Below are positions 13,193-51,549 of a stretch of DNA of 51,549 nucleotides, piece after piece; within the stretch, counting starts at the first letter, position 1; every line of letters starts with the position of its first letter. The position numbers were made by a program, and so were the translations under genes. The DNA comes from Dehalococcoidia bacterium (GTDB taxonomy: Bacteria; Chloroflexota; Dehalococcoidia; GIF9; AB-539-J10), in contig JAGHCA010000044.1 in assembly GCA_021160725.1 (NCBI GenBank), positions 1-51,549 of the forward strand, read 5' to 3'. The notes beneath the pieces were generated by a model. It was not told the DNA's origin. It was given only the letters and a program-made list of their open reading frames with translations, and made no database searches.

Positions 13193-14311
13193 ATGAGGAA
13201 GCTGGAGATTCAACGGGAACAAGCGTTGCAGGCGCGGCAAGAGTTCAAATTGATCATGCGACTGGAACAGGCTGGTTTGCTGGAAATGCCCGAAGAGGAG
13301 TTTAACAGGCTTACCACCGAAGTAGAAAGCAGCCCCTTATTTAGAAAGTTATATCGGAAGGATGGAATAATTCATTATCAGAGGTATCCTAAGACAGACT
13401 TTTCTCCTCGCTTTTATCAACTTAATGAAGAGATTGTTGCTGGGACAGACACTCTTGATATCGACTCTCTTTTATCTAACAAAGGAGATGTAATTCGTCT
13501 GATAAAGAAAATAGGGCTGGATAATTTTAAGCGCTATTTTCTTTATCCTGAACCCAGGGTAAGCATAGAAGAGGTCACTCAAGAGTGCAATTTGGAGCTT
13601 GCAGAGGTTGAAAGGATAGATAGCCTCATTAACGAATTCTCCATTATGAGCGAGTTTTACAACCCTTCTGTTCTGAGTTCGGAACATGGAATTCACTACT
13701 CCAAGGTCGCTTCGATAGAAAGGGGGGCTGAGGGTTTTATTATCAGCTATATCTCTCCGCCTTATGCGCGGGGAAGATATTCGATTGACTATGCGAGATT
13801 TGAGGAATTGAGGCAGAGTGGAGTTATCACCAAGGCTGAGGTAAAGGAAATCAGACAGCTATTTAAGAAGCTAGAGCTAATCAATAGACGTAAGGACACG
13901 GTTACTCGGATATTGCAAGGAATTGTGGAAAAGCAAGCACCCTATTTCGAATCCGGTAACGGCAAGGCTATCCTGCCGTTTAGCCAAAAAGAGCTAGCTG
14001 AAAGGATTGGGCTTGCTCCAAGCTCAATTAGCCGCGCTATTAGCGGTAAAAGCCTTGAGATGCCATGGGGCGAAGAGAAGGCCCTTAAGGATTTCTTTCC
14101 TCGGCCGAGAAGGTTTCGGAAGGAACTGGTCAGGCAGCTTCTTGAAACAGGGGAAGAATTCCCCTCTGATGAAGCGATTAAAGCCGAACTTGAACAGAAA
14201 TTTGGCGTTTCTATTTCCCGCCGTCTAGTAGCAAGCTTGAGGAAGGAATTAAAAATACCCGCAGCTTGGAAAAGGGGAAGACAGCCCTCTAAGAAAGCAA
14301 AAGGAGGATAA
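13193..14311 (+). CDS. short, divergent sigma-54 (RpoN)-like factor
   Basis: 372 aa. Region-I-like N-terminus (LEIQREQALQARQEFKLIMRLEQAGLLEMPEEEF..EVESSPLF). HTH segment SQKELAERIGLAPSSISRAISGKSLEMPWG..LKDFF. RpoN-box-like FGVSISRRLVASLRKELKIP. About 100 aa shorter than typical RpoN. Confidence 0.6.
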   Translation: MRKLEIQREQALQARQEFKLIMRLEQAGLLEMPEEEFNRLTTEVESSPLFRKLYRKDGIIHYQRYPKTDFSPRFYQLNEEIVAGTDTLDIDSLLSNKGDVIRLIKKIGLDNFKRYFLYPEPRVSIEEVTQECNLELAEVERIDSLINEFSIMSEFYNPSVLSSEHGIHYSKVASIERGAEGFIISYISPPYARGRYSIDYARFEELRQSGVITKAEVKEIRQLFKKLELINRRKDTVTRILQGIVEKQAPYFESGNGKAILPFSQKELAERIGLAPSSISRAISGKSLEMPWGEEKALKDFFPRPRRFRKELVRQLLETGEEFPSDEAIKAELEQKFGVSISRRLVASLRKELKIPAAWKRGRQPSKKAKGG

Positions 14312-14313
14312 TA

Positions 14314-16260
14314 ATGGGCATTATCTTTACAGTGACGGAGAAGTGTAAGGGGTGCTATGCCTGTGTTCGCAACTGCCCGGTCAAGGCTATTAGAGTGAAG
14401 GAAGGGATAGCCGGAGTTATGGAGGAGAGGTGTGTTACCTGTGGCGTCTGTATCAACATATGCGCTATAGGGGCCAGAGAGGCTAAGAGCGACATAGGTT
14501 ATGTTCGCCAGCTATTGGGGCAATCCACTCCGGTAATCGCTGCCCTTTCCTCCGCCTTTACGGCAGCTTTTCCAGAAATCAGGCCGAAGCAGTTAGTATC
14601 TGCTTTGAAGAAGCTGGGGTTCAGTGAGGTAATGGAAACTGCCTTTGGTGCTGAGCTGGTCTGCCGCGAGTATGGACGAATGGTAAAGGGAAACAAAGGA
14701 AAGCCCATTCTTTCCTCTACCTGTCCTGCTGTAACTTCCCTGGTGGAAAAACACTATCCTCAGCTAATCGATAGACTGGCACCAATTGTGTCGCCCATGA
14801 TCGCCATGGGCAGGGTCATTAAATGGCGGTACAATCCTGAGGCTAAAGTAGTCTTCATTGGCCCCTGTATAGCTAAAAAAGCTGAAGCAGAGGATGAGAA
14901 AGTTGCCGGGGTCATTGACGCTGTTCTGACCTTTTCCGAGCTGAGGGAGATGTTGGCGACAAAGGAAATCGACCTCCTTTCTGAGGAGGAAGAGCAGTTC
15001 TCTGGCCCCAGGCCTCATCTCGGTCGCCTGTTCCCTGTGCCCGGGGCTTCACTTAAGCTAGCGGGAATCTCTGGTGATACCATGATAAGCGATGTCGTTG
15101 TAGCTGAGGGCATTGATCGTGCTAGCAGTTGCCTTCTGGAATTTGCTCAAGGCAAGGTCAAAACCAAGTTTATGGACATATTCTTCTGCCGGGGTTGTAT
15201 TGACGGACCAGCGATAAATAAGAGCCTAAGCCTTTGTGGACGTAGGGAAAAAATAGTTGATTATGCTTTGGAGGATGCAGATCCGGCTCGAACGGAGAGC
15301 GACATCGAGCAATATGCTGACATTGACCTCAGCCGCAAATTTACCAATCGATATACTGTGCTACGCACCCCGACCGAAGATGAGATCAACGACATCCTGA
15401 GACAAATCGGTAAGCTAAAAAGAGAAGATCAACTCAACTGTGGAGCCTGTGGATATAATTCCTGTCGAGAGCTGGCTACTGCCGTCTGTCAAGGTTTAGC
15501 AGAGCGTGAGATGTGCTGGCCTTATCTGGTCAACGAATTACAGAATACACAGGATGAACTCCTCAGGGCTGAGAAGTTAACCTCGCTGGGCCAGTTGGCT
15601 GCCTCCATTGCTCACGAAATCAATAATCCTCTGACTGGTGTACTGGTCTATACCCAGTTGCTATCAAAGAAAGTGGCTGGTGATGCTTTTAAGAGAGAAC
15701 AAGCCTTGGAGTATCTTTCCAAGATGGAATCCGAGGTAGGTCGTTGCTCCAGGATAATCCGAAATCTTTTAGATTTTGCTCGGCAAACTGAGCCAATGTT
15801 GAGGTTGGTGGATGTTAACCGGGTTATAGAACAGGTATTGGCTATGGTAGGGCATCAAGCTCAACTTCAAAACGTTGAGATTGTGAAAGAGTTTAGCCCA
15901 TCCTTGCCTAAGGTCATAGCTGATTTCGACCAGCTTCAACAGGTATTTACTAATCTCACGCTGAATGCTATCCAGGCGATGTCTGAAGGGGGTAAGCTGA
16001 CTCTGCGCACGTCCGTGGAGAATAGTCAAGTTAGGGTTGATGTCCAGGATACAGGTTGTGGTATTTCAAAAGATAACTTGAGTAAGCTTTTCACTCCTTT
16101 CTTCACCACCAAGGCAAAAGGCAAGGGTGTAGGGTTGGGATTAGCTGTAGTTCACGGGATTATTGAGAGGCACAAGGGAGTAATCAAAGTGCAAAGTGAG
16201 GTGGGGAAAGGAACCACCTTCACCGTCTATTTGGGAGGCCACAACGATGAAAAAGGTTAA
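14314..16260 (+). CDS. sensor histidine kinase with 2x[4Fe-4S] ferredoxin, [FeFe]-hydrogenase-like domain and CxxCGxxxC Fe-S domain as input
   Basis: N-terminal CKGCYACVRNCP and CVTCGVCINIC. Hydrogenase H-domain-like motifs SSTCPAV, GPCIAKKAE and FFCRGCIDGP. Also NCGACGYNSCRELATAVC. H-box SIAHEINNPL and HATPase_c (DTGCGI..GKGVGLGL). The RBS lies inside the end of the preceding gene. Confidence 0.85.
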   Translation: MGIIFTVTEKCKGCYACVRNCPVKAIRVKEGIAGVMEERCVTCGVCINICAIGAREAKSDIGYVRQLLGQSTPVIAALSSAFTAAFPEIRPKQLVSALKKLGFSEVMETAFGAELVCREYGRMVKGNKGKPILSSTCPAVTSLVEKHYPQLIDRLAPIVSPMIAMGRVIKWRYNPEAKVVFIGPCIAKKAEAEDEKVAGVIDAVLTFSELREMLATKEIDLLSEEEEQFSGPRPHLGRLFPVPGASLKLAGISGDTMISDVVVAEGIDRASSCLLEFAQGKVKTKFMDIFFCRGCIDGPAINKSLSLCGRREKIVDYALEDADPARTESDIEQYADIDLSRKFTNRYTVLRTPTEDEINDILRQIGKLKREDQLNCGACGYNSCRELATAVCQGLAEREMCWPYLVNELQNTQDELLRAEKLTSLGQLAASIAHEINNPLTGVLVYTQLLSKKVAGDAFKREQALEYLSKMESEVGRCSRIIRNLLDFARQTEPMLRLVDVNRVIEQVLAMVGHQAQLQNVEIVKEFSPSLPKVIADFDQLQQVFTNLTLNAIQAMSEGGKLTLRTSVENSQVRVDVQDTGCGISKDNLSKLFTPFFTTKAKGKGVGLGLAVVHGIIERHKGVIKVQSEVGKGTTFTVYLGGHNDEKG

Positions 16261-17602
16261 AATACTAGTGGTTGATGATGAGGCTATTGTCCGCGAGTCG
16301 CTAAGCGAATGGCTCAAGGATGTTGGCTATCAGGTTTTCGCCGCTGAAAGTGGCCCCAAGGCATTAGAGGTGATTGGGAAGGAAAAGCCGGGCATCATGA
16401 TTGCCGATCTGGTTATGCCGGGTATGGACGGTATTGAATTGATGAAAAGGGCTAAAGAGCTTCATCCTAGGATAGAGGTTATTATTATCACAGCCTATGC
16501 TAGCATCCCTACCGCCATCGCTGCTATAAAAGAAGGGGCATACGATTATATTGAAAAGCCCTTTTGCCCTGAGAGAGCCGAATTCCTCGTCGAAAAATTA
16601 GCTGAACATCAGGAACTCGTCGAGGAAAACCTCGCCCTGCGTCATAGATTGGAAGACCGTTACCGCTTTGAGAACATCATTGCTAAGAGCTCCAAGATGC
16701 AGCGGCTGATTGAGTTGATAAAGGTTGTGGGCAAAAGCAACGCCACAGTATTAATCACAGGTGAAAGCGGCACAGGGAAGGAGTTAGTAGCACGTGCCAT
16801 TCATTCTCAGAGCCATCGTCGGAACAAGCCCTTTGTCGCTGTTAGTTGTGCTGCTTTGCCGGAAAGCCTTTTGGAAAGCGAACTGTTTGGCCACGAGAGG
16901 GGTTCCTTCACCGGCGCCTACACTCGGAAGAAGGGCAAATTCGAGTTTGCCAGTGGGGGGACTCTTTTTTTGGATGAAATCGGCGAGATGAGTGCCAATA
17001 TCCAAGTACACCTGTTAAGGGTTTTAGAAGAGAAAGAATTTACTCGCGTCGGTGGCAATGAGCCACTCAGAGTTGATGTAAGAGTTATTTCCGCGACTAA
17101 TAAGGACTTAAGAAAGGCCATAGAAAAGCAAGAATTCCGAGAAGACCTTTATTATCGCCTTAATGTAGTTAACATCGAATTGCCACCCTTGAGGGAAAGG
17201 AAGGAGGATATCCCTCTCTTGGCTGAGCATTTCTTGAATAAGTTTGCTTCGGAGAATCGGAAAGAGATTACCGGATTCTCTACCGATACTGTAGAATTTC
17301 TGCTCGATTATGACTGGCCGGGCAATGTCCGTGAGTTGGAAAATGCCATTGAAAGGGCGGTCATCCTGGCTAAGGATAGCATTATCACCATTGCTGACCT
17401 GCCTCAGAAGAAGATATCGCCTGCTTATTCAACTGCGCAGAGGAAAAATCTTAAAGAAGTAGAAAAAGAGCACATCTTGAATATCCTCCGTGAAACCGGC
17501 GAGAACTACAGTCAGGCAGCTAGAATCTTGGGAATTAGCAGGATGACGCTTTACAAAAAGGCAAGGGAATATGATTTAAGTGTAAAGAAAATTAAACAGT
17601 GA
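16247..17602 (+). CDS. sigma-54-dependent response regulator (NtrC family)
   Basis: REC (MKKVKILVVDDE..DLVMPGMDG), AAA+ sigma-54 activator core (GESGTGKE, ESELFGHERGSFTGA, the latter spanning the GAFTGA-type loop) and a C-terminal Fis-type HTH. Start placed at ATG 16247 behind GGGAGG, not at 16196. Confidence 0.9.
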   Translation: MKKVKILVVDDEAIVRESLSEWLKDVGYQVFAAESGPKALEVIGKEKPGIMIADLVMPGMDGIELMKRAKELHPRIEVIIITAYASIPTAIAAIKEGAYDYIEKPFCPERAEFLVEKLAEHQELVEENLALRHRLEDRYRFENIIAKSSKMQRLIELIKVVGKSNATVLITGESGTGKELVARAIHSQSHRRNKPFVAVSCAALPESLLESELFGHERGSFTGAYTRKKGKFEFASGGTLFLDEIGEMSANIQVHLLRVLEEKEFTRVGGNEPLRVDVRVISATNKDLRKAIEKQEFREDLYYRLNVVNIELPPLRERKEDIPLLAEHFLNKFASENRKEITGFSTDTVEFLLDYDWPGNVRELENAIERAVILAKDSIITIADLPQKKISPAYSTAQRKNLKEVEKEHILNILRETGENYSQAARILGISRMTLYKKAREYDLSVKKIKQ

Positions 17603-17663: not shown

Positions 17664-17700
17664 GAAAACTATCCTGAATTTTCAGGATGGTTTTTTATTT
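17664..17700 (+). terminator. intrinsic terminator after the regulator operon
   Basis: ATCCTGAA-TT-TTCAGGAT palindrome (17671-17688), flanked by an A-tract upstream and GGTTTTTTATTT downstream. Confidence 0.65.
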
Positions 17701-17756
17701 CGACGGAAGGATTGTAGTTGGCTTAGATTAGAAGATTAAGATATAGGGAAAGAGAT

Positions 17757-17772
17757 TGGCAAGAAAATTGCT
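17757..17772 (+). promoter_or_regulatory. sigma-54 (-24/-12) promoter TGGCAA-N5-TTGCT
   Basis: GG at 17758-17759 and GC at 17770-17771 with canonical spacing. RBS GAAAGGAGG (17785-17793) and ATG 17801 follow at the expected distance. Confidence 0.7.
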
Positions 17773-17800: not shown

Positions 17801-18868
17801 ATGGACAAAGAAGTGGTCTCAGTAAAACAAGAAAAAGAGCAGGAGGTGAATGAAATGAAACCAGTATTAATTGTTGAGGACGAAGCCATAGTACGTGAAT
17901 CGCTCAGAGACTGGCTTAAGAATGTGGGCTATGAAGTCGAAACAGCTGAGGAAGGTGAAGAAGCACTGGAGAAGATCGAGAATAAGGAATTCAGTGTCGC
18001 AGTTCTCGATCTAAGGCTGCCCGGAAAGGACGGATTGGAGGTATTGAGGGAAGCCACTGAGAAAAACCCGAAGATCAAGGGCATAGTTATCACTGCTTAT
18101 CCCTCAGTGGAAACCGCCGTGGAGGCGATGAAAATGGGTGCTATTGATTACATAGCGAAGCCATTTACCCCCGACGCCCTGGAGAGGAAAATTCAGGAGG
18201 TTCTAGGCTCGATTCAGATGAAGGTAAAACCTAAGGAAAGGAAGGTTGAGGAAGCCTCAGCGGAACTCACGGCAGTTAAGGAGGCTGGCATTGAGGAAGC
18301 TATAGTGATAACTGAAGAAGAGATCCCTACTCATCTGGAGGAAGGTCGAGCTTACTTCGAAGCGGGCCGCTACCAGGAGGCATTAAGAGAATTTCAGGCC
18401 ATTTTACAGGTTGCTCCGGGACACATAGAAACTCGAACCTGGGTCCAGAAGACCAAGAAAGCATTGGCGAAGCCGAAAGTAGAGGTACCTGAAGGAGAAG
18501 GTGCTGTTGAGGAAGGGGCGAAAGTCTGTATTTGGGCGAAGATGGGGATAGTCTCTCACAGGTACTGCACTCGGGATTATGACTGCTTGACCTGTGAGTT
18601 TGACCAGATGATGCAGGAGAAAGTGGCCTCCGGTGAGACTCCTGAGCTTGATGAGGCTCTGGAGAAGTTTAAGAACCTACCAGGATCCCAGAGACTTTGT
18701 CGTTATTCCCTAAAGGGCGACGTTTCGTACCGCCTTTGCTCTCGTGTCTTTCAATGCGCGACCTGCGAATTCGGGCAGCTCATGGAGGATGTCCTGGAGC
18801 GAAAGCTAGACAAGTTGTCTGCCCGCCGCCAGATTCTGAGTAAGAAGCGGTCGACTCTTAAAGACTGA
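17801..18868 (+). CDS. response regulator: REC + TPR-like segment + duplicated Cys4 (C..C..CxxCEFxQ) C-terminal domain
   Basis: REC (KPVLIVEDE..VLDLRLPGKDG..ITAY..KPF). TPR-like GRAYFEAGRYQEALREFQAILQVAPG. Two homologous Cys4 units (CIWAKMGIVSHRYCTRDYDCLTCEFDQMMQE and CRYSLKGDVSYRLCSRVFQCATCEFGQLMED). ATG 17855 is an alternative start. Confidence 0.8.
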   Translation: MDKEVVSVKQEKEQEVNEMKPVLIVEDEAIVRESLRDWLKNVGYEVETAEEGEEALEKIENKEFSVAVLDLRLPGKDGLEVLREATEKNPKIKGIVITAYPSVETAVEAMKMGAIDYIAKPFTPDALERKIQEVLGSIQMKVKPKERKVEEASAELTAVKEAGIEEAIVITEEEIPTHLEEGRAYFEAGRYQEALREFQAILQVAPGHIETRTWVQKTKKALAKPKVEVPEGEGAVEEGAKVCIWAKMGIVSHRYCTRDYDCLTCEFDQMMQEKVASGETPELDEALEKFKNLPGSQRLCRYSLKGDVSYRLCSRVFQCATCEFGQLMEDVLERKLDKLSARRQILSKKRSTLKD

Positions 18869-19023: not shown

Positions 19024-20172
19024 GTGAAAACAATAAGTCCTTATAAAGAAGCTACGGATGTAATACTTGAGGCGGGCGGTGAGCCTCTTAAATTGTGTTA
19101 TCAGTGTGGCCTTTGCACTGCTGTTTGTCCCTGGAACGTAGTGCGCAGTTTCTTGGTTCGCCGCATCATGCATGAAGCTCAGCTTGGGGTAACTGATTTT
19201 GACAGCGAGGATGTCTGGACTTGTGCCACTTGTCGAGCTTGTGTCCAGCGTTGCCCTCGGGGCGTTGAGATAATAGATGTCGTGAGGGCTGTACGTCGAG
19301 TTGTGGCTAGTCTCGGCATTGGTGTTGTCCCTGATGCTCTTCGGATATCAGCTAAGAACATCGCCGGCGTAGGTAATCCCTTTGGTGAAGCGCCAGAAAA
19401 GCGTAATGACTGGGCTAAAGATCTGGGGGTGAAGGAGTTCGTCCCGGGTACTGAAATACTTTATTTCCCTTGCTGTGTTCCCTCCTATGATCCTGATGTG
19501 AAAACAGTAGCTCGATCTGTTGCCACGATCTTCAATAAGCTGGGGGTTGATTATGGCCTGATAAGCACAGAGGCAAGATGCTGTGGCGAGTCAATTAGGA
19601 AGGCTGGGCATGAAGACACTTTTCAAAACCTGGCTCACAATAATATTAACCTCTTTGCCAATAATGATGTCAAAACTGTGGTAGTTTCCTCCCCACACTG
19701 CTACCATACTTTCAGAAATGAGTATCCCGAGCTTGGAGGCAAATTCGAAGTAATTCATATTACCCAATACTTAGCTTCACTTATCGACGAAGGAAAATTG
19801 AAGTTCTCTAAGACGATGAATAAAAAGGTAATCTATTCTGATCCTTGCTATTTGGGGAGGCATAACAATGTCTATGACGAACCTAGAAAGATATTGCAGA
19901 GTATTCCCGGCCTGGAATTAATAGAATTTCCCGATGCCCGCGAGAATGCTCTTTGTTGTGGTGGTGGCGGCGGTAGAATCTGGATGGATACACCGAAAGG
20001 GGAAAGGTTCTCTGATATAAGGGTAGAGCAAGCTGTAGAGAAAGGCGCTGATATTATAGCCTTGGCGTGTCCTTACTGCTTCCTCAACTACAGGGATAGC
20101 GTGCTATCTATGGGCAAGGCAGAGACTATGCAGGTTAGAGATATCGCTGAGCTTGTTGCTGAAGCAGTGTAA
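19024..20172 (+). CDS. HdrD-like fused HdrC/HdrB protein (2x[4Fe-4S] + two CCG domains)
   Basis: 382 aa. Carries CYQCGLCTAVCP and CATCRACVQRCP, then CCG-domain motifs (PCCVPS, ARCCGES, DPCYLGRH, ALCCGGGGG, ACPYC). GTG start with a weak RBS. Confidence 0.85.
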   Translation: MKTISPYKEATDVILEAGGEPLKLCYQCGLCTAVCPWNVVRSFLVRRIMHEAQLGVTDFDSEDVWTCATCRACVQRCPRGVEIIDVVRAVRRVVASLGIGVVPDALRISAKNIAGVGNPFGEAPEKRNDWAKDLGVKEFVPGTEILYFPCCVPSYDPDVKTVARSVATIFNKLGVDYGLISTEARCCGESIRKAGHEDTFQNLAHNNINLFANNDVKTVVVSSPHCYHTFRNEYPELGGKFEVIHITQYLASLIDEGKLKFSKTMNKKVIYSDPCYLGRHNNVYDEPRKILQSIPGLELIEFPDARENALCCGGGGGRIWMDTPKGERFSDIRVEQAVEKGADIIALACPYCFLNYRDSVLSMGKAETMQVRDIAELVAEAV

Positions 20173-23554: not shown

Positions 23555-23990
23555 GTTTGAGCCTAAGATTATCGTTTTTGCATGTAACTGGTGTACCTAT
23601 GCCGCAGCCGATCTAGCCGGAACGAGCCGAGTTCAATATCCTCCTAATGCCTATATCGTCAGGATGATGTGCAGCGGGATGATAAATCCCAGCTATGTTC
23701 TTAGAGCCTTTGAAGATGGTGCAGACGGAGTTATAGTCTCTGGATGTCATTACACTGATTGCCATTACATCGATGGACCGGTAAAGTGCGATGCCATGTT
23801 TGCCAAGCTAAAGAGGTTAGTACATATTCTTGGCTTGGAGGACGAGAGGCTAAAGCGCGAGATGATATCTACCTCCGAGGGAACAGTATTTGCTAGAGTG
23901 GTTAGGGAGTTCGTAAGCGAGCTTAAGAGGCTAGGGCCTTCGCCTTTTTCATCTTTAAGAAATTCAAGAAAGGAGAAGGCAGTGGCTTGA
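23547..23990 (+). CDS. mvhD: MvhD (methyl-viologen-reducing hydrogenase delta subunit/FlpD family)
   Basis: 147 aa. Carries FACNWCTYAAADLAG, MCSG and GCHYTDCHY. GTG start in an 8-nt overlap (GTGGCTGA) with the hdrA stop. Confidence 0.9.
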   Translation: MAEFEPKIIVFACNWCTYAAADLAGTSRVQYPPNAYIVRMMCSGMINPSYVLRAFEDGADGVIVSGCHYTDCHYIDGPVKCDAMFAKLKRLVHILGLEDERLKREMISTSEGTVFARVVREFVSELKRLGPSPFSSLRNSRKEKAVA

Positions 23991-43094: not shown

Positions 43095-43625
43095 CTATCG
43101 ATATGAACTCAGGATATCCTTTAGTCTGCTGGGCTTCACTCTCCTATGTATATCTTCATTGATGGCTAACACAGGAGATAAACCGCAACAGCCAATGCAC
43201 CTTACTGTTTGTAGCGAGAATCTGCCATCTGCTGTCGTCCCCCCAGACTCAAGACCGAGCTCTTTCTTCAGAGTATCAATTATTTTCTGCCCTCCCTTGA
43301 CGTAGCAACTGGTACCCAAACACACCTGAATGACATATTTACCCTTTGGCACCATCGAGAAAAAAGAATAGAAGCTCGTTATTCCATACATCTCGCTTAG
43401 AGGGATTCTCATTTCCCTGGCTATTATTTCCAGAACCTCACGTGGTAGATAGCCAATGAGCCCCTGCGCCTTTTGTAATACCCTGATTGGCGCTCCTGCT
43501 TGTCCCTCAGTAGCTTCAATTATTTTCTTTATTTGCTGCTGTGTCTTGCTATCTATAGCTTTACTTGCTTCCTCTTTGATTGGTTTGGTTTCGACTGCTT
43601 GCTTCAAGGACACCTCCTGAAACAT
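43095..43625 (-). CDS. hoxE: NuoE/HoxE/HydC-like [2Fe-2S] subunit
   Basis: 176 aa. Carries VCLGTSCYVKGG..RCIGCCGLSP (the C-x4-C...C-x3-C NuoE pattern). Confidence 0.85.
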   Translation of the reverse strand: MFQEVSLKQAVETKPIKEEASKAIDSKTQQQIKKIIEATEGQAGAPIRVLQKAQGLIGYLPREVLEIIAREMRIPLSEMYGITSFYSFFSMVPKGKYVIQVCLGTSCYVKGGQKIIDTLKKELGLESGGTTADGRFSLQTVRCIGCCGLSPVLAINEDIHRRVKPSRLKDILSSYR

Positions 43626-43984: not shown

Positions 43985-45802
43985 ATGTGGAAAACTGAAG
44001 CCACGGGAGTGGCACGTGTGGAGATGGCAGTAAGACAGTGTCTCCCCCCCTGCGAGATCAAATGCCCGATAAATGAGGATATCCAGCGGACAAACGTGCT
44101 CATTTCCCTGCTCCCTGAAGATATGGATTCGGCAAGAGAAGGTATGATCCAGATTAGCGATTATCTCTATGAAAGAAATCCCTTCTTCAACATTTGTGGT
44201 TACATCTGCGGAATTTGTGAGCTAGAGTGTAACTACCTCAAAAAGGGTGGTGCAATTAAGAGGAGGCTCCTCAAGAGATTCTTGTCGGATGTTTATACTG
44301 AACATCTTAGGGAACTGGGAAAACTTGAGATAGTCAAAAATAAAGAAAAGGTGGCTGTTATAGGTGGTGGGCCGGGCGGGCTGATGTGTGCCTACCATTT
44401 AAGCAAGAAAGGATATAACGTAACGGTAATCGAAGCTTCTGACAGGCTCGGCGGAGCACTGTGGCTGGTTCCGGATTATCGCTTGCCCAAGGATGTTCTG
44501 CAGACTACGGTTGAAAACCTCGTAAGAATAGCTGGCATAGACGTCCGGTATAACAACAAGCTGGGAGAGGGAGATTTGACACTAGAGCAGCTGAAGAACG
44601 ATGGCTATAAGGCAATCTTCCTCGCAACCGGGCTGCCATTTCCCAGAGTGCTGACTTTTGAGGGAAAATCTTTAGAGGGGCAGGACCTGGCCGGTGTTAT
44701 GTATGGTCACACTTATCTATATGAAGTTAGTTACAATAATATCGCCCCAGATTATTTCAAAGGCAAGAGAGTCATTGTCACGGGAGGGGGGAATGTAGCC
44801 TTTGACGTGGCCAGGTCAGCTAGGAGGCACGGCGCAGAGGTCACTGTCGTAGCCCTTGAACGTGAAGATAAAGACCATAGAGATGGTATACCTGCAGACG
44901 AGCAAGAGATCCGTGGGGCCTGGGAGGAGGGCATAAAAATAATCTATAGCCGTGGTGTGAGAAAAATCATCGGAGAGAGTGGCAGATTTAAGGGAATCAA
45001 CTGCCCGACTTGCGTGAGCGTCTTTGATGAAGAGGGGTTCAATCCAAAATTTGATTGTGCGGACTGTATAGACCTGGAGGGCGATATACTCATAATCACA
45101 GTAGGGCAGGCTCCTGATAAATCACTCTTTCAGAAGGCAGGCCTTCTGGATGAGCGTGGTAGATTTAATGTTGACCATCTAACGTTGCAGAATGTGAACG
45201 AGCCTTGGGTTTTTATAGGCGGTGATGTTAGAAGGGTCGGCTTTATGGTTGAAGCTATGGGTGAAGGGCTTGTGGCTGCTGAATCAATTGACAGATATCT
45301 ACGGGGAGTGGATATGAGGGAGGGGCGAAGAAGAGATTATGAGGGATATCCAATTCCTCTGAGGAAGAATTATAAGAGTGAGCCCGAGGTGCCCTGGATG
45401 CCACCAGAGAACAGAATGCACTTCAAGATTTTTGAGCAGGGATTTACACTCAAAGAGGCGATAGAAGAAGCGCGAAGATGTGTTACTTGTGGGCCATGTC
45501 TGTCTTGTAAAGCCTGCATCTCGATTGGTTTTCAGAAGTCGTTGAGCCCAGTTGAAGTGGATGAAACAAGGTGTAGTGGTTGTGGGCATTGTGTTTATGT
45601 CTGCAATTATTATTCTGCTCATTTGATTAGCTCTGGTGAAAAAATTATATCCGCAACGGATATGTTCAGATGTAAATCCTGCGGCATGTGTGTTGCGGCT
45701 TGCCCATCTGAAGCAAGAAGAATGGTCGATGATGACACAGTGGAAAAGATAGATGAGTTGTACTCGTCTTTGATACAGCGTCCAGACCAAAATATTGTTT
45801 AG
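43985..45802 (+). CDS. GltD-like NAD(P)H flavoprotein with C-terminal poly-ferredoxin
   Basis: 605 aa. Carries CEIKCPINEDI..NICGYICGICELEC, VIGGGPGGLMCA..DYRLPKDV, VTGGGNVAFDVAR, EEARRCVTCGPCLSCKAC, CSGCGHCVYVC and CKSCGMCVAACP. Confidence 0.8.
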   Translation: MWKTEATGVARVEMAVRQCLPPCEIKCPINEDIQRTNVLISLLPEDMDSAREGMIQISDYLYERNPFFNICGYICGICELECNYLKKGGAIKRRLLKRFLSDVYTEHLRELGKLEIVKNKEKVAVIGGGPGGLMCAYHLSKKGYNVTVIEASDRLGGALWLVPDYRLPKDVLQTTVENLVRIAGIDVRYNNKLGEGDLTLEQLKNDGYKAIFLATGLPFPRVLTFEGKSLEGQDLAGVMYGHTYLYEVSYNNIAPDYFKGKRVIVTGGGNVAFDVARSARRHGAEVTVVALEREDKDHRDGIPADEQEIRGAWEEGIKIIYSRGVRKIIGESGRFKGINCPTCVSVFDEEGFNPKFDCADCIDLEGDILIITVGQAPDKSLFQKAGLLDERGRFNVDHLTLQNVNEPWVFIGGDVRRVGFMVEAMGEGLVAAESIDRYLRGVDMREGRRRDYEGYPIPLRKNYKSEPEVPWMPPENRMHFKIFEQGFTLKEAIEEARRCVTCGPCLSCKACISIGFQKSLSPVEVDETRCSGCGHCVYVCNYYSAHLISSGEKIISATDMFRCKSCGMCVAACPSEARRMVDDDTVEKIDELYSSLIQRPDQNIV

Positions 45803-45812: not shown

Positions 45813-46259
45813 TTGAGTGAATATAAACCTAAATTAGTGTGTTTTTCCTGCAAATTTAGCTGGGGTTATCTGACAAACGAAGATATGCTCTCAAGCAAGA
45901 TAGATAACTGGCTTCCACTAATTTGCACGGGGAAAATTGATGCTACTCATATGCTGGAGGCATTCAGAGCGGGGGCTGATGGAATTTTGATACTTGGTTG
46001 TCCGGAAGGGGAGTGTCATTACCAAGATGGCAACTACGAGGCAAAAAAGAGAGTATGTTTAGTTCGCAGGCTGTTAGAGTCCGTTGGTATAGAGAAGGAA
46101 AGGGTTAGGATAGAACTATCCAGAGATCCCGAAGGCAACAGAATCCCCGAGTTGGTGAAAGAGATGAGACAAGAATTGGTAAAACTAGGTCCGGCAAAAA
46201 GGGGTCTGGTGACGGAAAAGAAATCCAAAGAGACCACTAAAGTTAGAGGAGGGAAATGA
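45813..46259 (+). CDS. mvhD: divergent MvhD-like subunit
   Basis: About 148 aa from TTG 45813, 6 nt after AGGAGG. Carries LVCFSCKFSWGY, ICTG and GCPEGECHY. The first Cys motif differs from the FACNWC form of the other copies. Confidence 0.75.
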   Translation: MSEYKPKLVCFSCKFSWGYLTNEDMLSSKIDNWLPLICTGKIDATHMLEAFRAGADGILILGCPEGECHYQDGNYEAKKRVCLVRRLLESVGIEKERVRIELSRDPEGNRIPELVKEMRQELVKLGPAKRGLVTEKKSKETTKVRGGK

Positions 46260-46260: not shown

Positions 46261-47229
46261 ATGGCCAAGCCGAAGATTGCGATTTGCTGGTTGGGGTCGT
46301 GTGGTGGTTGTGACGAAACGGTAGTGGATATAAATGAAGTACTACTTCGGGTAGCAGCTGCGGTTGATATAGTCCTTTGGCCGGTGGCGATGGACTTCAA
46401 GTATGATAGCCTAAAAAAGATTAAAAATGGGGGAATTGTGTTGGGTATAGTCAATGGGCATGTCAGAAACTCTGAGCAAGAAGAGATAGCCAAGATACTA
46501 AGGGAGAAATCACAGCTAATTCTTGCCTTCGGTGCCTGTGCTTGCTTTGGAGGAACACCTGGATTGGCTAATCTTGCTACGAAGGAGGACATCTTCAACT
46601 GGGTGTACCGTGATGCCCCAACTGTAGTTAACCCAAATAGTAACTACCCCCAGACAATCTCCAATGTCAATGGGAAAGAACTTACTCTGCCTGAATTCTA
46701 TAACCGTGTTTATGCGTTGAATGACATCATCGATGTCGATTATTACCTGCCTGGATGTCCCCCACCTCCATATTTGGTGTTACATGCCGTGAGCGCGGCC
46801 ATCGAAAATAAATTCCCCCCCAAAGGCTCAACCTTAGCACCTCATAGAGCCCTGTGTGATAGCTGTAAACGCAATAGATCGAAGCCGGATAAAATATCAA
46901 TAAGGGAAATCAAGAGAATTCATGAGGTAGAGGCAGACCCCGATATTTGTTTTCTAGCTCAAGGAATAGTATGCCTGGGTCCAGCTACTCGTGATGGCTG
47001 TGGGGAATCCTGCATGAATATCAATATGCCGTGTCGGGGATGCTTTGGCCCTGTGGAGGGAGTCGAAGATTCCGGCGCTAAATTTATCTCTACGATGGCA
47101 TCAATTCTGGACGCAGAGAGTGATGAAGACATAGCAAGAATTGTAAGCCAGTTTGTTGACCCTGTGGGATATCTGTATCGATTTTTACTCCCCGCTTCGA
47201 TACTACAGAAAAAGCAGATTGTGAAATAG
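46261..47229 (+). CDS. mvhG: [NiFe] hydrogenase small subunit, group 3c (MvhG-like)
   Basis: 322 aa. Carries WLGSCGGCDE, GACACFGG and GCPPPP, plus C-terminal Cys clusters (CDSC, CLGPATRDGCGESC, CRGCFGP). Confidence 0.85.
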   Translation: MAKPKIAICWLGSCGGCDETVVDINEVLLRVAAAVDIVLWPVAMDFKYDSLKKIKNGGIVLGIVNGHVRNSEQEEIAKILREKSQLILAFGACACFGGTPGLANLATKEDIFNWVYRDAPTVVNPNSNYPQTISNVNGKELTLPEFYNRVYALNDIIDVDYYLPGCPPPPYLVLHAVSAAIENKFPPKGSTLAPHRALCDSCKRNRSKPDKISIREIKRIHEVEADPDICFLAQGIVCLGPATRDGCGESCMNINMPCRGCFGPVEGVEDSGAKFISTMASILDAESDEDIARIVSQFVDPVGYLYRFLLPASILQKKQIVK

Positions 47230-47252
47230 ATTAGATAGGAAAGAGGTGTACT

Positions 47253-48716
47253 GTGAGCAAAAGGATAACCATAAACCCAATAACCAGGCTTGAGGGACAT
47301 GGGAAAATCGAGATTTTTTTGGACGATAAGGGTGAAGTAGAAGATGCTTATTGGCAGGTAGTGGAGCTTAGAGGATTTGAAACTTTTTGTCTGGGTAGGC
47401 CTATAGAAGAGTTGCCGCGGATTATGCCAAATATCTGTGGCGTTTGTCCAACTCCACATAATATGGCGTCGGTGAAAGCGCTGGATGACCTGTACAGGGT
47501 AGAGCCAACTCCTCCTGCCAAGTTGATAAGGCAGCTCCATTACAATGCTTTCATAGTAGAAGACCATCTGTTGCACTTCTATATACTTTCCTCGCCTGAC
47601 TTTGTCCTTGGGCCAACTAGTGACCCGTCAGAACGGAATATTGTCGGTGTGGTGCAGAAGGTTGGATTGGAGATCGGTGGCAAGGTCATAGAGGCAAGGA
47701 AAAGATGCCGGGAGATAATCCGGCACATTGCCAGCAAGCCTGCCCATCCGGAGGGTGGCTTGCCTGGTGGAGTTTCCGTGGTAATTATCGAGGAGGACAG
47801 AAAATGGATACGGGAAACTGCCGATTTCTGTGTCGAATTTTGCCAGTTTTCTCTGGAGTTATTCAAACAGGTTGTCTTGGACAACAAAGAATATTTGAAT
47901 ATTGTCCTGAATGATGCTTACAAACTGAACACCTATTATATGGGACAGGTTGATGAGAATAATCGCTTGAATTTTTACGAAGGTAAGTGCAGGGTGGTTA
48001 ATCCAAAAGGTGAGGAGTATGCCTTGTTTGATTGCCACGATTATGTTGATTACATAGGAGAGTGGGTTGAACCATGGACATATGTTAGGTTAACTCACTT
48101 GCGACAGATAGGTTGGAAAGGCTTGAACGAGGGTGAAGCGACATCATTGTACCGTGTGGGGCCACTGGCAAGATTAAACGCAGCTGACAATATGTTAACC
48201 CCCCTCGCTCAGAGAGAATATGAGACTATGTTTGATATACTGGGAGGCAAACCTGCTCACCATACTCTCGCTTATCATTGGGCAAGGTTAATTGAAGCTT
48301 TGCAGGCTGCTGAGCATATGCAGAGAATTGCTAATGATCCTTTGCTGACCAGCAAGGATATACGCAATATGGACCTTAAGCTGGACAAGGTTGGCGTTGG
48401 TTGTGTTGAGGCATCGCGGGGAACGTTAATCCACCATTATGAAGCTGATACTGAAGGAAAAGCTACAAAGGTGAATCTTATTGTAGCAACTCAGCACAAT
48501 GCTGCCCCCATATGTTTATCTGTGAAAAAGGCGGCCAGGGAATTTGTCAAGGGTCCCCAGGTGAAGGAAGGTTTCCTCAATATGGTGGAGATGGCTTTCC
48601 GAGCATATGATCCGTGTCTGGCTTGTGCGACTCATGCCCTGCCCGGTCAGATGCCGCTTACAGTGAATATAAGAGAGCATAACGGAGGCTTGATACGGAC
48701 CTTGCAGAGACCATAA
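47253..48716 (+). CDS. mvhA: [NiFe] hydrogenase large subunit, group 3c (MvhA-like)
   Basis: 487 aa. Carries NICGVCPTPHN and the C-terminal DPCLACATH plus an extension. GTG start after AAGAGG. Confidence 0.9.
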   Translation: MSKRITINPITRLEGHGKIEIFLDDKGEVEDAYWQVVELRGFETFCLGRPIEELPRIMPNICGVCPTPHNMASVKALDDLYRVEPTPPAKLIRQLHYNAFIVEDHLLHFYILSSPDFVLGPTSDPSERNIVGVVQKVGLEIGGKVIEARKRCREIIRHIASKPAHPEGGLPGGVSVVIIEEDRKWIRETADFCVEFCQFSLELFKQVVLDNKEYLNIVLNDAYKLNTYYMGQVDENNRLNFYEGKCRVVNPKGEEYALFDCHDYVDYIGEWVEPWTYVRLTHLRQIGWKGLNEGEATSLYRVGPLARLNAADNMLTPLAQREYETMFDILGGKPAHHTLAYHWARLIEALQAAEHMQRIANDPLLTSKDIRNMDLKLDKVGVGCVEASRGTLIHHYEADTEGKATKVNLIVATQHNAAPICLSVKKAAREFVKGPQVKEGFLNMVEMAFRAYDPCLACATHALPGQMPLTVNIREHNGGLIRTLQRP

Positions 48717-48860: not shown

Positions 48861-50105
48861 ATGGTGAGTCTGACGCAGAGATACTACCGCAGTCTTTACG
48901 AAATAGCAGCTGTGATTAATTCAGCTGGTACTCCTAAGAACGTGCTCAATACAATTGTAGAAACTGTTGCCAAGGCAATGGATGTTAAAGGGTGCTCATT
49001 AATGCTCCTAACCCCGGACCGGAAAGATTTGCTTCAGACAGCAGCATATGGATTAAGCGACTGGTATGTCAACAAGGGCCAGTTGTCTGCCGACAAGAGT
49101 ATTCCCCAGGTGTTGAAAGGGAAGCCCGTTGCCGTATTGAACGCAACCGAGGATGAGAGAGTACAGTATAGGGAAGAGGCGAAACGGGAGGGGATTGCAT
49201 CTATGCTTTCGGTACCAGTGATATTCAAGAAAGATGTAGTGGGGGTGATAAGGGTATACACTGCAAATCAGCATGACTTCGCAGCTGACGAGATGTATTT
49301 CGTGCAGGCGGTTGCAAATCTAGGTGCTATTGCCTTGGAGAATGCCAGGAGGCTAGAACAGTGTTTTACTGAAGTAGACAAGCTGGAAGAGGAGAGACGA
49401 CAGTTTGTTCGCTTTCTCAGTGTTGTCGCTCATGATCTCCAATCACCGCTGGTTGCTATTCAGAGCTTATTATCCTATATGGTGGATGGATACACCGGAG
49501 AGATTACTGAAGGGCAAAAGGATCTGATGCAGAGGGGTATCAGGAGGGTTGATGAGCTTCTAACTTTGCTTACCGATCTGCTGGATATACCTCGTATCAG
49601 AGCTGGCCAGCTTGAGCGCGAGAAAGTAGAACTTTCTTTGCATGAGGTAGTTAAACAAGTGGTGGAAGAGCTCAGTAGTGTTGCTAAGAAGAAGGGAATA
49701 GTATTGAAGGTTGAACTACCTGAAAGTTTACCTAAAGTTTACGCATCCAAGCGACGTCTGCAACAAGTGTTGAATAACCTGATAAGTAATGCTATTAATT
49801 ATACACGTGAAGGCATGGTACTTGTAAGGGTGAAGGAATATGATAACGAGGTAGCGATTGAAACAATGGACACTGGCGTCGGCATACTACCTAGTGAGCT
49901 GCCCCGAGTGTTTGACGAGTTTTTTAGAGGGAGCAATGTGGGAACTAAAGGAACTGGATTGGGGTTATCAATATCGAAGCGAATAATTGAGGCTCATGGA
50001 GGGAAAATCTGGGTTGAGAGTCCCTGTCCCGAAACTGGTAAGGGAAGTAAATTTACTTTTACTTTGCCACAAATACGGACGCTCGAGACAGTATCTAAGA
50101 CATAA
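48861..50105 (+). CDS. GAF-domain sensor histidine kinase (cytoplasmic)
   Basis: 414 aa. N-terminal GAF-like ~160 aa, H-box [10 protein letters not shown], and HATPase_c ([24 protein letters not shown]). No hydrophobic segments. Confidence 0.85.
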
Positions 50106-50153
50106 TATGCGCATGTAAGGTCCCAGAACGAATAACTAAGGAGGCGATTAAAT

Positions 50154-50537
50154 ATGAAACAAAGGCCGAAGATTCTACTCGTTGATGATGATGTTGATCT
50201 TGTGAAAGTTATGAGAGGAGCTCTGGAAAGTAAGGCCTACGAGGTGGTTGTGGCCTACAATGGACAGGAAGGTTTGGAAAAGGCAAGAAAAGAGAAACCC
50301 GATCTAGTCGTTCTAGATATTTTGATGCCAGAGGCGAATGGTTTTACATTTGCCGACCAATTCCGCAAGGACCCAGTGCTTGCCAAGATTCCTGTCTTGG
50401 CACTGACCAGCTTCTCAGAGTCACTGGGGCAACCTTTCCCATTTGAGGTGTCTGAATATATTGTCAAGCCCATCAAACCAAAAGACTTGGTGGCCAAGGT
50501 AGAGGAATCTCTTAAAAAGGCTGGGATATCGCAATAG
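50154..50537 (+). CDS. single-domain response regulator (CheY-like REC)
   Basis: 127 aa. Carries KILLVDDD..VVLDILMPEANG..LTS..KP. Confidence 0.85.
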   Translation: MKQRPKILLVDDDVDLVKVMRGALESKAYEVVVAYNGQEGLEKARKEKPDLVVLDILMPEANGFTFADQFRKDPVLAKIPVLALTSFSESLGQPFPFEVSEYIVKPIKPKDLVAKVEESLKKAGISQ

Positions 50538-50693
50538 GATTGCCTCTACTTTCCATCTAGAGCGCGAATCCTGATGCATCAGACGAGGAGGTGCCTTTTT
50601 TTAGCAGACGTGCTATCATTTACAAGATCGTTTTATCAGAGTGGTGAGTAAGGGTGGATTGGTACTGCCCTTTCTGTTTAGTCAGGAGGCTAG

Positions 50694-51137
50694 ATGGGCA
50701 ATTTTGAACCAAAAATAATAGCTTTTTGCTGTAATTGGTGCTCTTATGCCGGTGCCGACCTGGCGGGCACTTCCAGAATCCAATACCATCCCGCTATAAG
50801 GATAATCAGGGTTATGTGTAGTGGCAGGGTAAGCCCTCTCTTTGTCCTTAAAGCGATTAGCATCGGTGCTGATGGCGTGTTGGTCCTTGGTTGTCATCCC
50901 GGTGATTGCCACTACATTGAAGGAAATTACAAGACGCTACGTCGTATCCCGTTACTCAAGAGGATTTTGAAGCAGTTTGGGATAGAGGAAGAAAGAGTTC
51001 GGCTGGAGTGGGTTTCCGCGTCTGAGGGAGCAAGATTTGCTGAGGTGGCTAATAGTTTTACTCAATCCATAAAAAACCTTGGGCCAAATACATTGGGCCA
51101 TTTAAAGCAGAATTCTAAGGAGGCAAAGCATGGCTAA
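50694..51137 (+). CDS. mvhD: MvhD (fourth copy in the window)
   Basis: 147 aa. Carries FCCNWCSYAGADLAG, MCSG and GCHPGDCHY. Confidence 0.9.
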   Translation: MGNFEPKIIAFCCNWCSYAGADLAGTSRIQYHPAIRIIRVMCSGRVSPLFVLKAISIGADGVLVLGCHPGDCHYIEGNYKTLRRIPLLKRILKQFGIEEERVRLEWVSASEGARFAEVANSFTQSIKNLGPNTLGHLKQNSKEAKHG

Positions 51138-51549
51138 ACTGAAAATAGCTCTTTACTGGGCGGCTAGTTGTGGCGGTTGCGACATCGCCACCCTGGCAAT
51201 AGGCGACAAAATTCTGAAGCTGGCCGAGGCTGCCGACATCGTGTTCTGGCCGGTTGGCTTAGATTTCAAATATGCTGACGTAGAGAAGATGCCCGATAAA
51301 AGTATTGACGCCTGTCTCTTTAATGGGGCTATCAGGACTTCGGAGAACGAGCACATTGCCAAACTCTTACGAGCTAAGTCCAAATTGATGATTGCCTATG
51401 GCTCTTGTTCTTATGAGGGTTGTATCCCAGGGCTGTCTAATTTTTATGACCGAAAAACGACCTTCGAACGCGCCTATATCGAAACCCCGACGACTGATAA
51501 TCCTAAGAAAATCCTTCCCCAGACGAAAGTTAAGGTACCCGAGGGCGAA
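51130..51549 (+). CDS. mvhG: MvhG-like [NiFe] hydrogenase small subunit, 5' partial (runs off the window)
   Basis: Not in the ORF track because it is open-ended. My own translation from ATG 51130 gives MAKLKIALYWAASCGGCDIA..VFWPVGLDFKY..GSCSYEGC, collinear with the MvhG at 46261. ATGGCTAA start/stop overlap with mvhD. Confidence 0.8.
   Translation, partial: MAKLKIALYWAASCGGCDIATLAIGDKILKLAEAADIVFWPVGLDFKYADVEKMPDKSIDACLFNGAIRTSENEHIAKLLRAKSKLMIAYGSCSYEGCIPGLSNFYDRKTTFERAYIETPTTDNPKKILPQTKVKVPEGE

Follow-up and report, generated by a model that had tools for sequence, protein, structure and literature searches.

GltD-like modules in Hdr- and Bfu-type redox genes of a Dehalococcoidia gene neighbourhood

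Introduction

Dehalococcoidia are among the most abundant uncultured bacteria of anoxic sediments and aquifers, and their energy metabolism has been inferred mostly from coarse gene lists. We describe here a 51,549-nucleotide (nt) stretch of a Dehalococcoidia contig (JAGHCA010000044.1; hereafter the window), the last 38 kb of which carry Hdr-, NfnAB- and Bfu-type genes, three families associated with electron bifurcation, together with [NiFe] hydrogenase genes and five copies of a GltD-like module. A first-pass annotation had taken these genes for one coordinated hub that maps onto no characterised complex. We find that every component is of a recognisable kind and that the supposed 38-kb island is two independently conserved modules that adjoin here, with no single unit. 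The observed domain content, orthology to solved complexes, insertion points, motif integrity and synteny are best read as those of a gene neighbourhood and not of one machine; it probably encodes at least five separate soluble redox complexes in which NAD(P)(H) would dock where ferredoxin normally does.

In the HdrA of methanogens, an inserted ferredoxin domain forms the branch that reduces ferredoxin. A fusion of HdrA with a GltD-like protein was named HdrL in Desulfobacterium autotrophicum in 2009 (PMC2702500), and HdrL has since been detected in the proteome of S. fumaroxidans (PMC5947623). The HdrA of ANME-1 carries a GltD/NfnB insertion at the same site (PMC9012536, 2022), and in 2025 such proteins were classed as type III HdrA, with the GltD part proposed to block the ferredoxin site and to link the enzyme to NAD(P)H (PMC12054007). 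For the Bfu family, the 2022 survey of Schut selected B subunits through their ferredoxin-type domain (IPR017896) and described an "absolutely conserved BfuBC core" (PMC9304861); in NfnABC of T. sibiricus, the site of ferredoxin reduction is the B subunit's C-terminal domain (PMC12018979). Histidine-kinase-linked [FeFe] hydrogenases form the putative group C1 of HydDB (PMC5037454).

Two independently conserved modules

The first module comprises a putative H2-sensor kinase, an NtrC-type activator, a sigma-54-type promoter, the Hdr/MvhD block, NfnAB and an Mvh hydrogenase; the second is a divergent pair of [NiFe] hydrogenase operons with its own two-component system (Table 1). On the plus strand, between 13.2 and 35.9 kb, a sigma-54-like gene, a [FeFe]-hydrogenase-like histidine kinase, an NtrC-type activator and a receiver-TPR gene come first, followed by HdrCB1, HdrL1, MvhD, HdrCB2, HdrL2 and HdrA3 and, past a 337-nt gap, by HdrA4, MvhD::HdrCB3, NfnA and NfnB. 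The minus strand carries, from 43.6 to 36.0 kb, the genes for NuoE, NuoF::GltD, a NuoG-like protein and the small and large [NiFe] subunits; the divergent plus-strand genes opposite them encode a GltD-ferredoxin protein, MvhD, MvhG, MvhA, a GAF kinase, a receiver, a further MvhD and the start of an MvhG. Neighbouring genes within a block overlap or have 1-25 nt between them. The window also holds a terminator-like hairpin, a divergent promoter region and probably four or more transcription units.

Open reading frame (ORF) listing and Pfam, NCBIfam and PDB searches confirmed the inventory of the first-pass annotation, all of whose counts were upheld: four HdrA-type proteins, three fused HdrC/HdrB proteins with two CCG domains each (one as the C-terminal part of a longer protein), four MvhD copies (FlpD, E 6.5e-30 to 3.6e-56), NfnAB, homologues of NuoE, NuoF and NuoG, and two complete [NiFe] hydrogenases with the start of a third. 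The window lies within a metagenome contig of 67.8 kb (ENA ERZ27227320 k141_764220), on which the third Mvh operon is complete (MvhG of 319 aa and MvhA of 488 aa beyond the window end) and whose gene calls agree with the window ORFs, including those of the HdrA3-HdrA4 region and MvhD 3.

The nearest genomes are all metagenome-assembled genomes (MAGs) of Dehalococcoidia/Chloroflexota, with protein identities of 60-90%; a Desulfobacterota origin, first suspected on account of HdrL, was rejected for this reason. The Hdr, NfnAB and Mvh gene order recurs in many Dehalococcoidia genomes. The recurrent order is HdrCB, HdrL1 or plain HdrA, MvhD, HdrCB2, HdrL2 and HdrA3, the second slot being held by HdrL1 in 11 loci and by a plain HdrA in 13. 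HdrA3 is followed by HdrA4-MvhD::HdrCB3 (10 loci), by MvhD, usually with MvhG and MvhA (9 loci), or by NfnAB (2 loci); NfnB is followed by MvhD in 9 loci, several of which continue with MvhG and MvhA. The MvhD-headed third Mvh operon stands directly after NfnB or HdrA3 in 9 relatives. The HydL/S/A operon follows NfnB in the window and, among the relatives, only in L022. In two other loci (L084 and L085), the divergent pair, GltD-ferredoxin-MvhDGA-kinase-receiver facing HydC-HydB::GltD-HydA-HydS-HydL, is kept as a unit of about 15 kb with the kinase/regulator pair at the equivalent position; its neighbours in those genomes are Mrp/NifU, integrase and uvrC genes, with no Hdr or Nfn genes adjoining. 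It is this separation that argues for two adjoining independent modules and against a single coordinated 38-kb hub.

The word island finds no compositional basis either. Horizontal acquisition was considered and rejected, since the GC content is even (0.44-0.50) across the whole window, with no break that would mark a foreign segment.

The repeated GltD-like module

The claim that one module occurs five times holds for the number of copies (Pfam Pyr_redox_2, E 1e-33 to 1e-52; pairwise identity 32-50%) and has to be amended for their form, because there are two subtypes, one canonical (NfnB) and four circular permutants (the grafted copies). The grafted copies lack the first ~50 residues of NfnB, and a matching Fe-S segment of about 50 aa, with the pattern F.EV.L.Y....A.EEA.RCL.C, stands at their C-terminal end. 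Local alignment supports the permutation (z = 9-17; 0 of 500 shuffles reached the score). The permuted form is that of the NADPH-binding domain in NfnA/StnC of the Nfn-Bfu transhydrogenases; the HdrL1 insert matches residues 101-575 of 9bov_A at E 1e-133, compared with E 1e-92 for the NfnB of NfnSL.

All five modules share C..CP, GRVC..C..C, the FAD motif GxGPAGL, YRLP, the second nucleotide motif GGGNxAxDxAR and GGD, and their dinucleotide-binding motifs are intact on alignment. The YRR triplet that the first-pass annotation had included in the common motif string follows the second Rossmann strand in four modules (NfnB, HdrL1, HdrL2 and NuoF::GltD), and ALERE takes its place in the Mvh-operon protein. 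As a rule of thumb, the triplet after the second strand of a Rossmann fold hints at NADP or NAD; YRR thus suggests NADP for the four, and ALERE perhaps NAD for the fifth. The GltD-like domain is a widely reused NAD(P)H adaptor, and any wiring of the families through this one module is something we infer.

NfnB, the sole canonical copy, is encoded next to NfnA. The adjacent FAD/[2Fe-2S] NfnS-type and FAD/two-[4Fe-4S] NfnL-type subunits both score above their curated cut-offs, and NfnB matches Thermotoga maritima NfnB (4ylf_B) over its full length at E 1e-174.

Hdr proteins

Two of the four HdrA-type proteins, HdrL1 and HdrL2, contain a thioredoxin-reductase-like FAD domain and a GltD-like insertion in the inserted ferredoxin domain; they are the published HdrL, or type III HdrA, and are not new. 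HdrL1 is a complete HdrA in which the alignment places the insert between both Cys motifs of the inserted ferredoxin domain; its ORF has 1133 aa and its start is probably an upstream TTG. HdrL2, with the same insertion, has neither the N-terminal domain nor the C-terminal ferredoxin domain. Both of these are found in HdrA3, which in turn is devoid of the inserted ferredoxin domain and of the FPT.DC..C cysteine pair. In 19 of 19 relatives HdrA3 comes next after HdrL2; since the two are complementary and always adjacent, we infer that they pair as a heterodimer in which each electron path is present once. An MvhD gene directly follows HdrL1; HdrL2 is followed by HdrA3 and then, in relatives, by MvhD.

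In the HdrC/HdrB fusions, the CCG and CxxCxxCxxxCP motifs are intact and CCG, PC.LGRH and CP.C are aligned, and the non-cubane cluster cysteines of methanogen-type HdrABC, in two CCG domains, are present in all three. None of the window proteins reaches the NCBIfam equivalog cut-offs for HdrA, HdrB or HdrC (HdrA4, 825 bits against 1100; HdrC/HdrB models, 35-85 bits against 160-450).

The HdrL2 site is variable in relatives. At L016:4650-10011 it holds an HdrA(N)::NuoE fusion, a 1055-aa NuoF::GltD and a NuoG(N)::HdrA(C) fusion, and L036:11558-15942 has the same layout, but with a ferredoxin end on NuoF. The hdrA gene is thus split around a Bfu core, which is a gene-level merger of two bifurcating families that does not figure on the published list of Bfu functionalities. 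At L015:11583-16025 the site holds an HdrA(N)::polyferredoxin together with an FdhA-like molybdopterin oxidoreductase that is complete at 683 aa and with a protein of 475 aa whose end is the C-part of HdrA; a formate-type module here stands in the slot occupied by GltD in the window. The site inside the inserted ferredoxin domain of HdrA therefore accepts at least three kinds of redox module, which supports the view of the GltD insert as a substrate port for electron input or output.

Hydrogenases

The minus-strand operon is an ortholog set of the solved bifurcating NiFe-HydABCSL: all five genes are contiguous, and the best PDB matches are chains of 7t2r. HydB has the GGPSG loop ('qiggpsgg') and the CGKCxPCR motif, and its extra N-terminal domain (residues 30-120) aligns with the bifurcation-associated N-terminal domains of HydB and NfnB. 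The alignment to 7t2r_B (residues 8-541) ends at residue 541 of 597, and the window protein goes on with the Fe-S domain of GltD: in Pfam, NADH_4Fe-4S (454-538) is followed by Fer4_20 (549-633), and no Fer4 dicluster domain was found between them. The window HydB is thus devoid of the C-terminal two-[4Fe-4S] ferredoxin-like domain of BfuB (IPR017896), which places the fusion outside the published Bfu survey. The HydB::GltD fusion recurs in at least 120 protein clusters of ~1029 aa (73-100% identity), and all clusters with a source name are labelled Dehalococcoidia or Chloroflexi. A literature search, in which few subscription papers were covered, yielded no description of a NuoF::GltD hydrogenase or of HydABCSL in Chloroflexi. 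NuoE and NuoF::GltD are also kept, at 75% identity, at L083:9534-13244 (CP070810.1, the 1.03-Mb chromosome record of a Dehalococcoidia MAG).

The protein that heads the Mvh-type operon had been called a poly-ferredoxin; it is in fact a GltD module with one two-cluster ferredoxin domain. It matches 9n5u_A and 5jca_L at E ~1e-54 and belongs to a family that recurs in metagenome protein clusters. MvhD 3, encoded next to it, has a divergent N-terminus (FSCKFSWGY against FACNWCTY) without the NWC cysteine common to the other three MvhD. Selenocysteine read-through was considered for this N-terminus and for the HdrA3-HdrA4 gap and was rejected, there being no in-frame TGA and all ORFs being complete.

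Regulatory genes and flanking features

The sigma-54/two-component module at the 5' edge, as the first-pass annotation had it, is conserved upstream of the Hdr block together with a -24/-12 promoter-like site. The sigma-54-like protein is 71% identical in L015 and L019 and scores 82 bits against TIGR02395 (cut-off 277), with only profile positions 277-433 matched. No match was found to region I or to the core-binding domain of RpoN, and the DNA-binding domain is all that is recognised; the gene is nevertheless kept beside the NtrC-type activator and the -24/-12 site. The sensor kinase, 79% identical in L019, carries its cysteine-bearing H-cluster motifs in altered form (SSTCP, GPCIAKK and FCRGCIDGP), with the GPCxxK and FCxxGC features kept. 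In place of TSCCP it has SSTCP and has thereby lost the proton-relay Cys, a change to be expected in a sensor and not in a catalyst. The protein looks like a putative H2 sensor and would fit the putative group C1 of HydDB.

The hairpin and T-run after the NtrC gene span 17665-17706. The site TGGCAAGAAAATTGCT is the sole one of its type among all intergenic regions of the window, and the scan of these regions found no sigma-54 sites ahead of other operons. Its core, TGGCAAGAAAATTGC, stands at the same position in L015:1646 and L019:3911; L019 reproduces the entire order from the sigma-54-like gene through HdrA3. The receiver-TPR gene, with a ribosome-binding site GGAGG at 17789 and an ATG at 17801, precedes HdrCB1 in L015 and L019. 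Scans for sigma-70 and terminator consensus sequences gave counts no higher than in shuffled sequence and were thus not used.

The HdrA3-HdrA4 gap contains a 16-nt direct repeat, at 29701-29716 (TTGAATTGCGTAAGTT) and 29845-29860 (TTTAACTGCGTAAGTT), 144 nt apart, with a TATTAT-like box after each copy; for the HdrA4-NfnB unit, these repeats may serve as tandem promoters or as an operator. A 10-nt repeat, TGCGTAAGTT, was not enriched window-wide.

Outside the redox genes, a T-box leader (Rfam RF00230, 100.6 bits) lies at 388-637 (+), upstream of a fumarate-lyase-family gene (748-2103) and of an argininosuccinate synthase gene (2114-3388). At 5313-8683 (-), beside dnaB, are genes for a 472-aa protein with two IstB/DnaC-like AAA stretches and for a DnaB_2-domain protein, a helicase-loader pair unrelated to the redox genes.

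Table 1. Coordinates of the features discussed, with the matches that identify them
Feature	Position	Strand	Evidence
Sigma-54-like protein, 372 aa	13193..14311	+	Pfam Sigma54_DBD E 1e-20
[FeFe]-hydrogenase-like sensor fused to histidine kinase	14314..16260	+	Fe_hyd_lg_C E 1.4e-54, HisKA, HATPase_c
NtrC-type sigma-54-dependent response regulator	16196..17602	+	Response_reg, Sigma54_activat E 5e-75, HTH_8
Terminator-like hairpin after regulator operon, then GGTTTTTTATTT	17665..17694	+	14-nt arms, 93% complementary
Sigma-54 (-24/-12) promoter-like site TGGCAAGAAAATTGCT	17757..17772	+	11/12 consensus positions
Response-regulator receiver + TPR protein, first gene past sigma-54 site	17801..18868	+	Response_reg E 1e-29, TPR_2
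HdrC/HdrB fusion 1 (two 4Fe-4S motifs + two CCG domains)	19024..20172	+	CCG E 1e-31
HdrL1, complete HdrA + permuted GltD insert (~nt 21050-22520)	20189..23554	+	5odc_A E 2e-221, two stretches
MvhD 1	23547..23990	+	FlpD E 2.6e-47
HdrC/HdrB fusion 2	23987..25153	+	CCG E 8e-28
HdrL2, HdrA core + GltD insert (~nt 25600-27075)	25156..27915	+	Profiles, alignment
HdrA3	27917..29596	+	NF040770 profile 1-230; NF041778 profile 325-650
HdrA4, canonical full-length HdrA	29946..31934	+	NF040770 825 bits, profile 1-643
MvhD::HdrC/HdrB fusion 3	31927..33510	+	FlpD E 2e-53, CCG E 2.5e-28
NfnA (NfnS)	33569..34447	+	NF004862 364.8 bits, cut-off 220
NfnB (NfnL), sole canonical GltD-type module	34450..35871	+	TIGR01316 576.4 bits, cut-off 471.75
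[NiFe] large subunit HydL	35989..37425	-	7t2r_D E 3e-185; RICGICPVSH, DPCLSCSTH motifs
[NiFe] small subunit HydS, 178 aa	37440..37976	-	Oxidored_q6 E 4e-30
HydA/BfuA, NuoG-like, inactive-type molybdopterin fold	38002..39993	-	7t2r_A E 1.7e-123, residues 1-659 vs 1-660
HydB/BfuB, NuoF-like + permuted GltD module (nt 39999-41453)	39996..43085	-	7t2r_B E 4e-206
HydC/BfuC, NuoE-like	43095..43625	-	2Fe-2S_thioredx E 5e-48
Permuted GltD module + two-cluster ferredoxin domain, first gene of Mvh-type operon	43985..45802	+	Pyr_redox_2 E 1e-35, Fer4_20 E 4e-6, Fer4_21
MvhD 3	45813..46259	+	FlpD E 6.5e-30, profile 31-123
MvhG2 + MvhA2, [NiFe] group 3c-like hydrogenase	46261..48716	+	Oxidored_q6, NiFeSe_Hases, 5odc_F E 5e-104, DPCLACATH
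GAF histidine kinase + single-domain response regulator, of dual-hydrogenase block	48861..50537	+	Profile search
MvhD 4 + start of MvhG3, third Mvh hydrogenase	50694..51549	+	FlpD E 3.6e-56

Proposed mechanism and its alternatives

The subunit pairings, direction of electron flow, nucleotide specificity, H2 sensing and any disulfide chemistry in the following scheme are predictions from gene content. The putative H2-sensing kinase and the NtrC-type activator would act at the sigma-54-type promoter before the receiver-TPR gene; this promoter probably also serves the Hdr genes, which would bring the Hdr block under H2 control. Three Hdr complexes are predicted: HdrCB1 with HdrL1 and MvhD; HdrCB2 with the HdrL2/HdrA3 heterodimer, after which Mvh hydrogenase genes directly follow in relatives; and HdrA4 with MvhD::HdrCB3. 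In both HdrL, the GltD-like FAD/two-[4Fe-4S] module lies within the inserted ferredoxin domain, on the branch that in methanogens reduces ferredoxin, and NAD(P)(H) would thus take the ferredoxin position as a third partner, besides H2 (via MvhD and Mvh) and some disulfide (via HdrCB). NfnAB would balance NADH, NADPH and ferredoxin. At its FMN, HydABCSL::GltD should connect H2 with NAD(H) and, at the FAD of the GltD part, with NAD(P)(H); in the second, Mvh-type hydrogenase, the GltD-ferredoxin protein is probably the recipient of electrons from MvhD, which would make this an H2:NAD(P)+ enzyme.

A bolder extension, about which we are doubtful, is that GltD was grafted at the ferredoxin exit of two unrelated cores, HdrA and BfuB, to give 'ferredoxin-free' bifurcating enzymes with NADP+ as the uphill acceptor. 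In cells, NADP+ stands at about -380 mV and ferredoxin at about -500 mV. Candidate reactions would be 2 H2 + NAD+ + NADP+ -> NADH + NADPH and H2 + disulfide + NADP+. If this were true, energy-starved subsurface bacteria could make NADPH from H2 at partial pressures too low for ferredoxin reduction. The loci in which hdrA is split around nuoE-nuoF(::gltD)-nuoG take this a step beyond, with the Bfu and Hdr cores physically merged.

Several points weigh against the scheme of separate complexes with NAD(P)(H) docking in place of ferredoxin. First of all, the nucleotide specificity of the GltD modules was assigned by a rule of thumb. Second, the search for a disulfide substrate of the Hdr parts gave none: genes for coenzyme M/coenzyme B (CoM/CoB), DsrC, MetFV or the lipoate-binding protein LbpA were found neither in the window, as the first-pass annotation had noted, nor in the flanks of the cluster in relatives, and only housekeeping, Moa/Mod and HycI genes occur in the flanks of the window and of the relatives. 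Third, core-binding and activator-interacting regions are not recognisable in the sigma-54-like protein, no sigma-54 site turned up directly before HdrCB1, and read-through across the 155 nt between the receiver-TPR gene and HdrCB1 has to be assumed. Fourth, no hydrogenase genes follow the NuoF::GltD gene of L083 and its NuoG is a 48-residue fragment, which means that the fusion may not always work with a hydrogenase; the arrangement reflects either decay or a hydrogenase-independent use. Finally, NAD(P) on the low-potential branch would remove the usual reason for bifurcating, and the GltD FAD could be a donor site, as proposed in PMC12054007, or a second bifurcating flavin.

The first of these possibilities is the alternative that survives best. 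The GltD modules would be NAD(P)H entry points, that is, mid-potential donors, and HdrL would bifurcate to disulfide and, via MvhD/Mvh, to protons, or confurcate in reverse; we regard this as a possible, though not the favoured, account. It is the route proposed for archaeal type III HdrA (PMC12054007), and HdrABC/HdrL, abundant in sulfate-grown S. fumaroxidans, have been interpreted as confurcating (PMC5947623). The NuoEF or FdhA-like proteins at the HdrL2 site of relatives are typical donor modules, and the homologous NfnABC domain takes electrons from NADPH. Against it, GltD is attached to the branch that is of low potential in the methanogen enzyme, and the FMN of the HydB fusion is already a pyridine-nucleotide site. 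The direction of flow is not readable from sequence, and a donor role for GltD is nearly as good a reading as an acceptor role.

That the whole 38 kb encodes one hub or supercomplex, with co-expressed Hdr, Nfn and Bfu cores wired via GltD modules, seems unlikely to us, even though NfnAB stands directly beside the HydL/S/A genes in the window and L022, the order of Hdr, Nfn and Mvh is fixed in many genomes, and the Bfu-core genes inside split hdrA imply that this lineage can join Hdr to Bfu modules. In L084 and L085 the dual-hydrogenase block stands apart from Hdr/Nfn, 9 relatives lack it between NfnB and MvhD, and it has its own kinase, regulator and divergent promoter region; moreover, the terminator-like hairpin and the 337-nt gap with its promoter-like repeats divide the plus-strand genes, and there is only one sigma-54 site. 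Least probable of all is that the clustering means little and that paralogues of unrelated pathways accumulated by tandem duplication and local insertion, as the tandem HdrCB, HdrA and MvhD copies, the interchange of HdrL1 and plain HdrA in one slot, the optional HdrA4-MvhD::HdrCB3 and the uniform composition might suggest, for the order and the complementary HdrL2/HdrA3 pair are strictly conserved, junctions are translationally coupled or overlapping, and regulators and promoter are conserved.

A neighbourhood of separate complexes, our preferred reading, is largely assembled from described families, which it extends without overturning current ideas. Three variants are undescribed, namely the HydB::GltD hydrogenase, the GltD-headed Mvh operon and the obligate HdrL2/HdrA3 pair; all recur in many metagenome protein clusters or contigs, carry only generic names in public annotation, and are concrete, clonable candidates. 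They bear on the possibility of rewiring a bifurcating enzyme's ferredoxin branch to NAD(P) and on the old question of what bacterial Hdr complexes reduce where neither DsrC nor CoM/CoB genes are nearby, and the conserved unit of putative H2 sensor, NtrC-type activator and -24/-12 promoter offers a genetic handle.

Comparison with known systems

The view that these genes map onto no characterised complex was mistaken, as the NuoEFG and [NiFe] genes correspond to NiFe-HydABCSL, NfnAB to NfnSL and the HdrA::GltD proteins to HdrL/type III HdrA. NfnAB is an ordinary member of the set, with the two-gene order of NfnSL from Thermotoga maritima and Pyrococcus furiosus, full-length matches and no notable difference. 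HdrA4 and HdrL1 align with the HdrA of the methanogen MvhAGD-HdrABC complex (5odc; E 2e-221), and MvhA, MvhG, MvhD and the HdrC/HdrB motifs are present; unlike the methanogen system, HdrB and HdrC are fused here, no CoM/CoB pathway is in view, and NCBIfam scores fall below the equivalog cut-offs.

The HdrL of D. autotrophicum and Syntrophobacter, the HdrA-NfnB of ANME-1 and type III HdrA are one and the same arrangement, a GltD/NfnB-like insert of ~470-500 aa in the inserted ferredoxin domain, as found here, with MvhD downstream and sometimes clustered with mvhADG. The window differs in its Dehalococcoidia host, and in having two HdrL forms in tandem, of which one is a truncated protein that strictly accompanies a complementary HdrA devoid of the inserted ferredoxin domain; where GxGxxG has been reported for archaeal type III HdrA, the window proteins have GxGxxA. 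The sensor kinase shares with the putative sensory [FeFe] hydrogenases of group C1 the fusion of an H-cluster domain to HisKA and HATPase and the lost proton-relay cysteine; it differs from them in its partners, which are a sigma-54-like gene, the NtrC-type activator and, before an Hdr cluster, a conserved -24/-12 site.

The window encodes the five subunits known from NiFe-HydABCSL (NiFe-Bfu) of Acetomicrobium mobile (7t2r), here in the gene order C, B, A, S, L. In HydB, however, the last ~56 residues of the A. mobile protein, the two-cluster ferredoxin-like domain, are replaced by ~480 aa of permuted GltD with FAD and NAD(P)H motifs, and the N-terminal domain has the three-Cys pattern of T. 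sibiricus NfnB (9n5u_B), which is reported to hold zinc in place of two clusters (PMC12018979), unlike A. mobile HydB. The Nfn-Bfu transhydrogenases NfnABC/StnABC (9n5u, 9bov and 8oh5) share with the window the permuted GltD-like NADPH/FAD domain (E 1e-104 to 1e-133) and the BfuB/BfuC core. In those enzymes, the GltD domain belongs to BfuA (NfnA/StnC) and supplies the mid-potential path, whereas in the window it is fused to the C-terminal end of BfuB, the docking place of ferredoxin, and the same operon encodes an [NiFe] hydrogenase as well.

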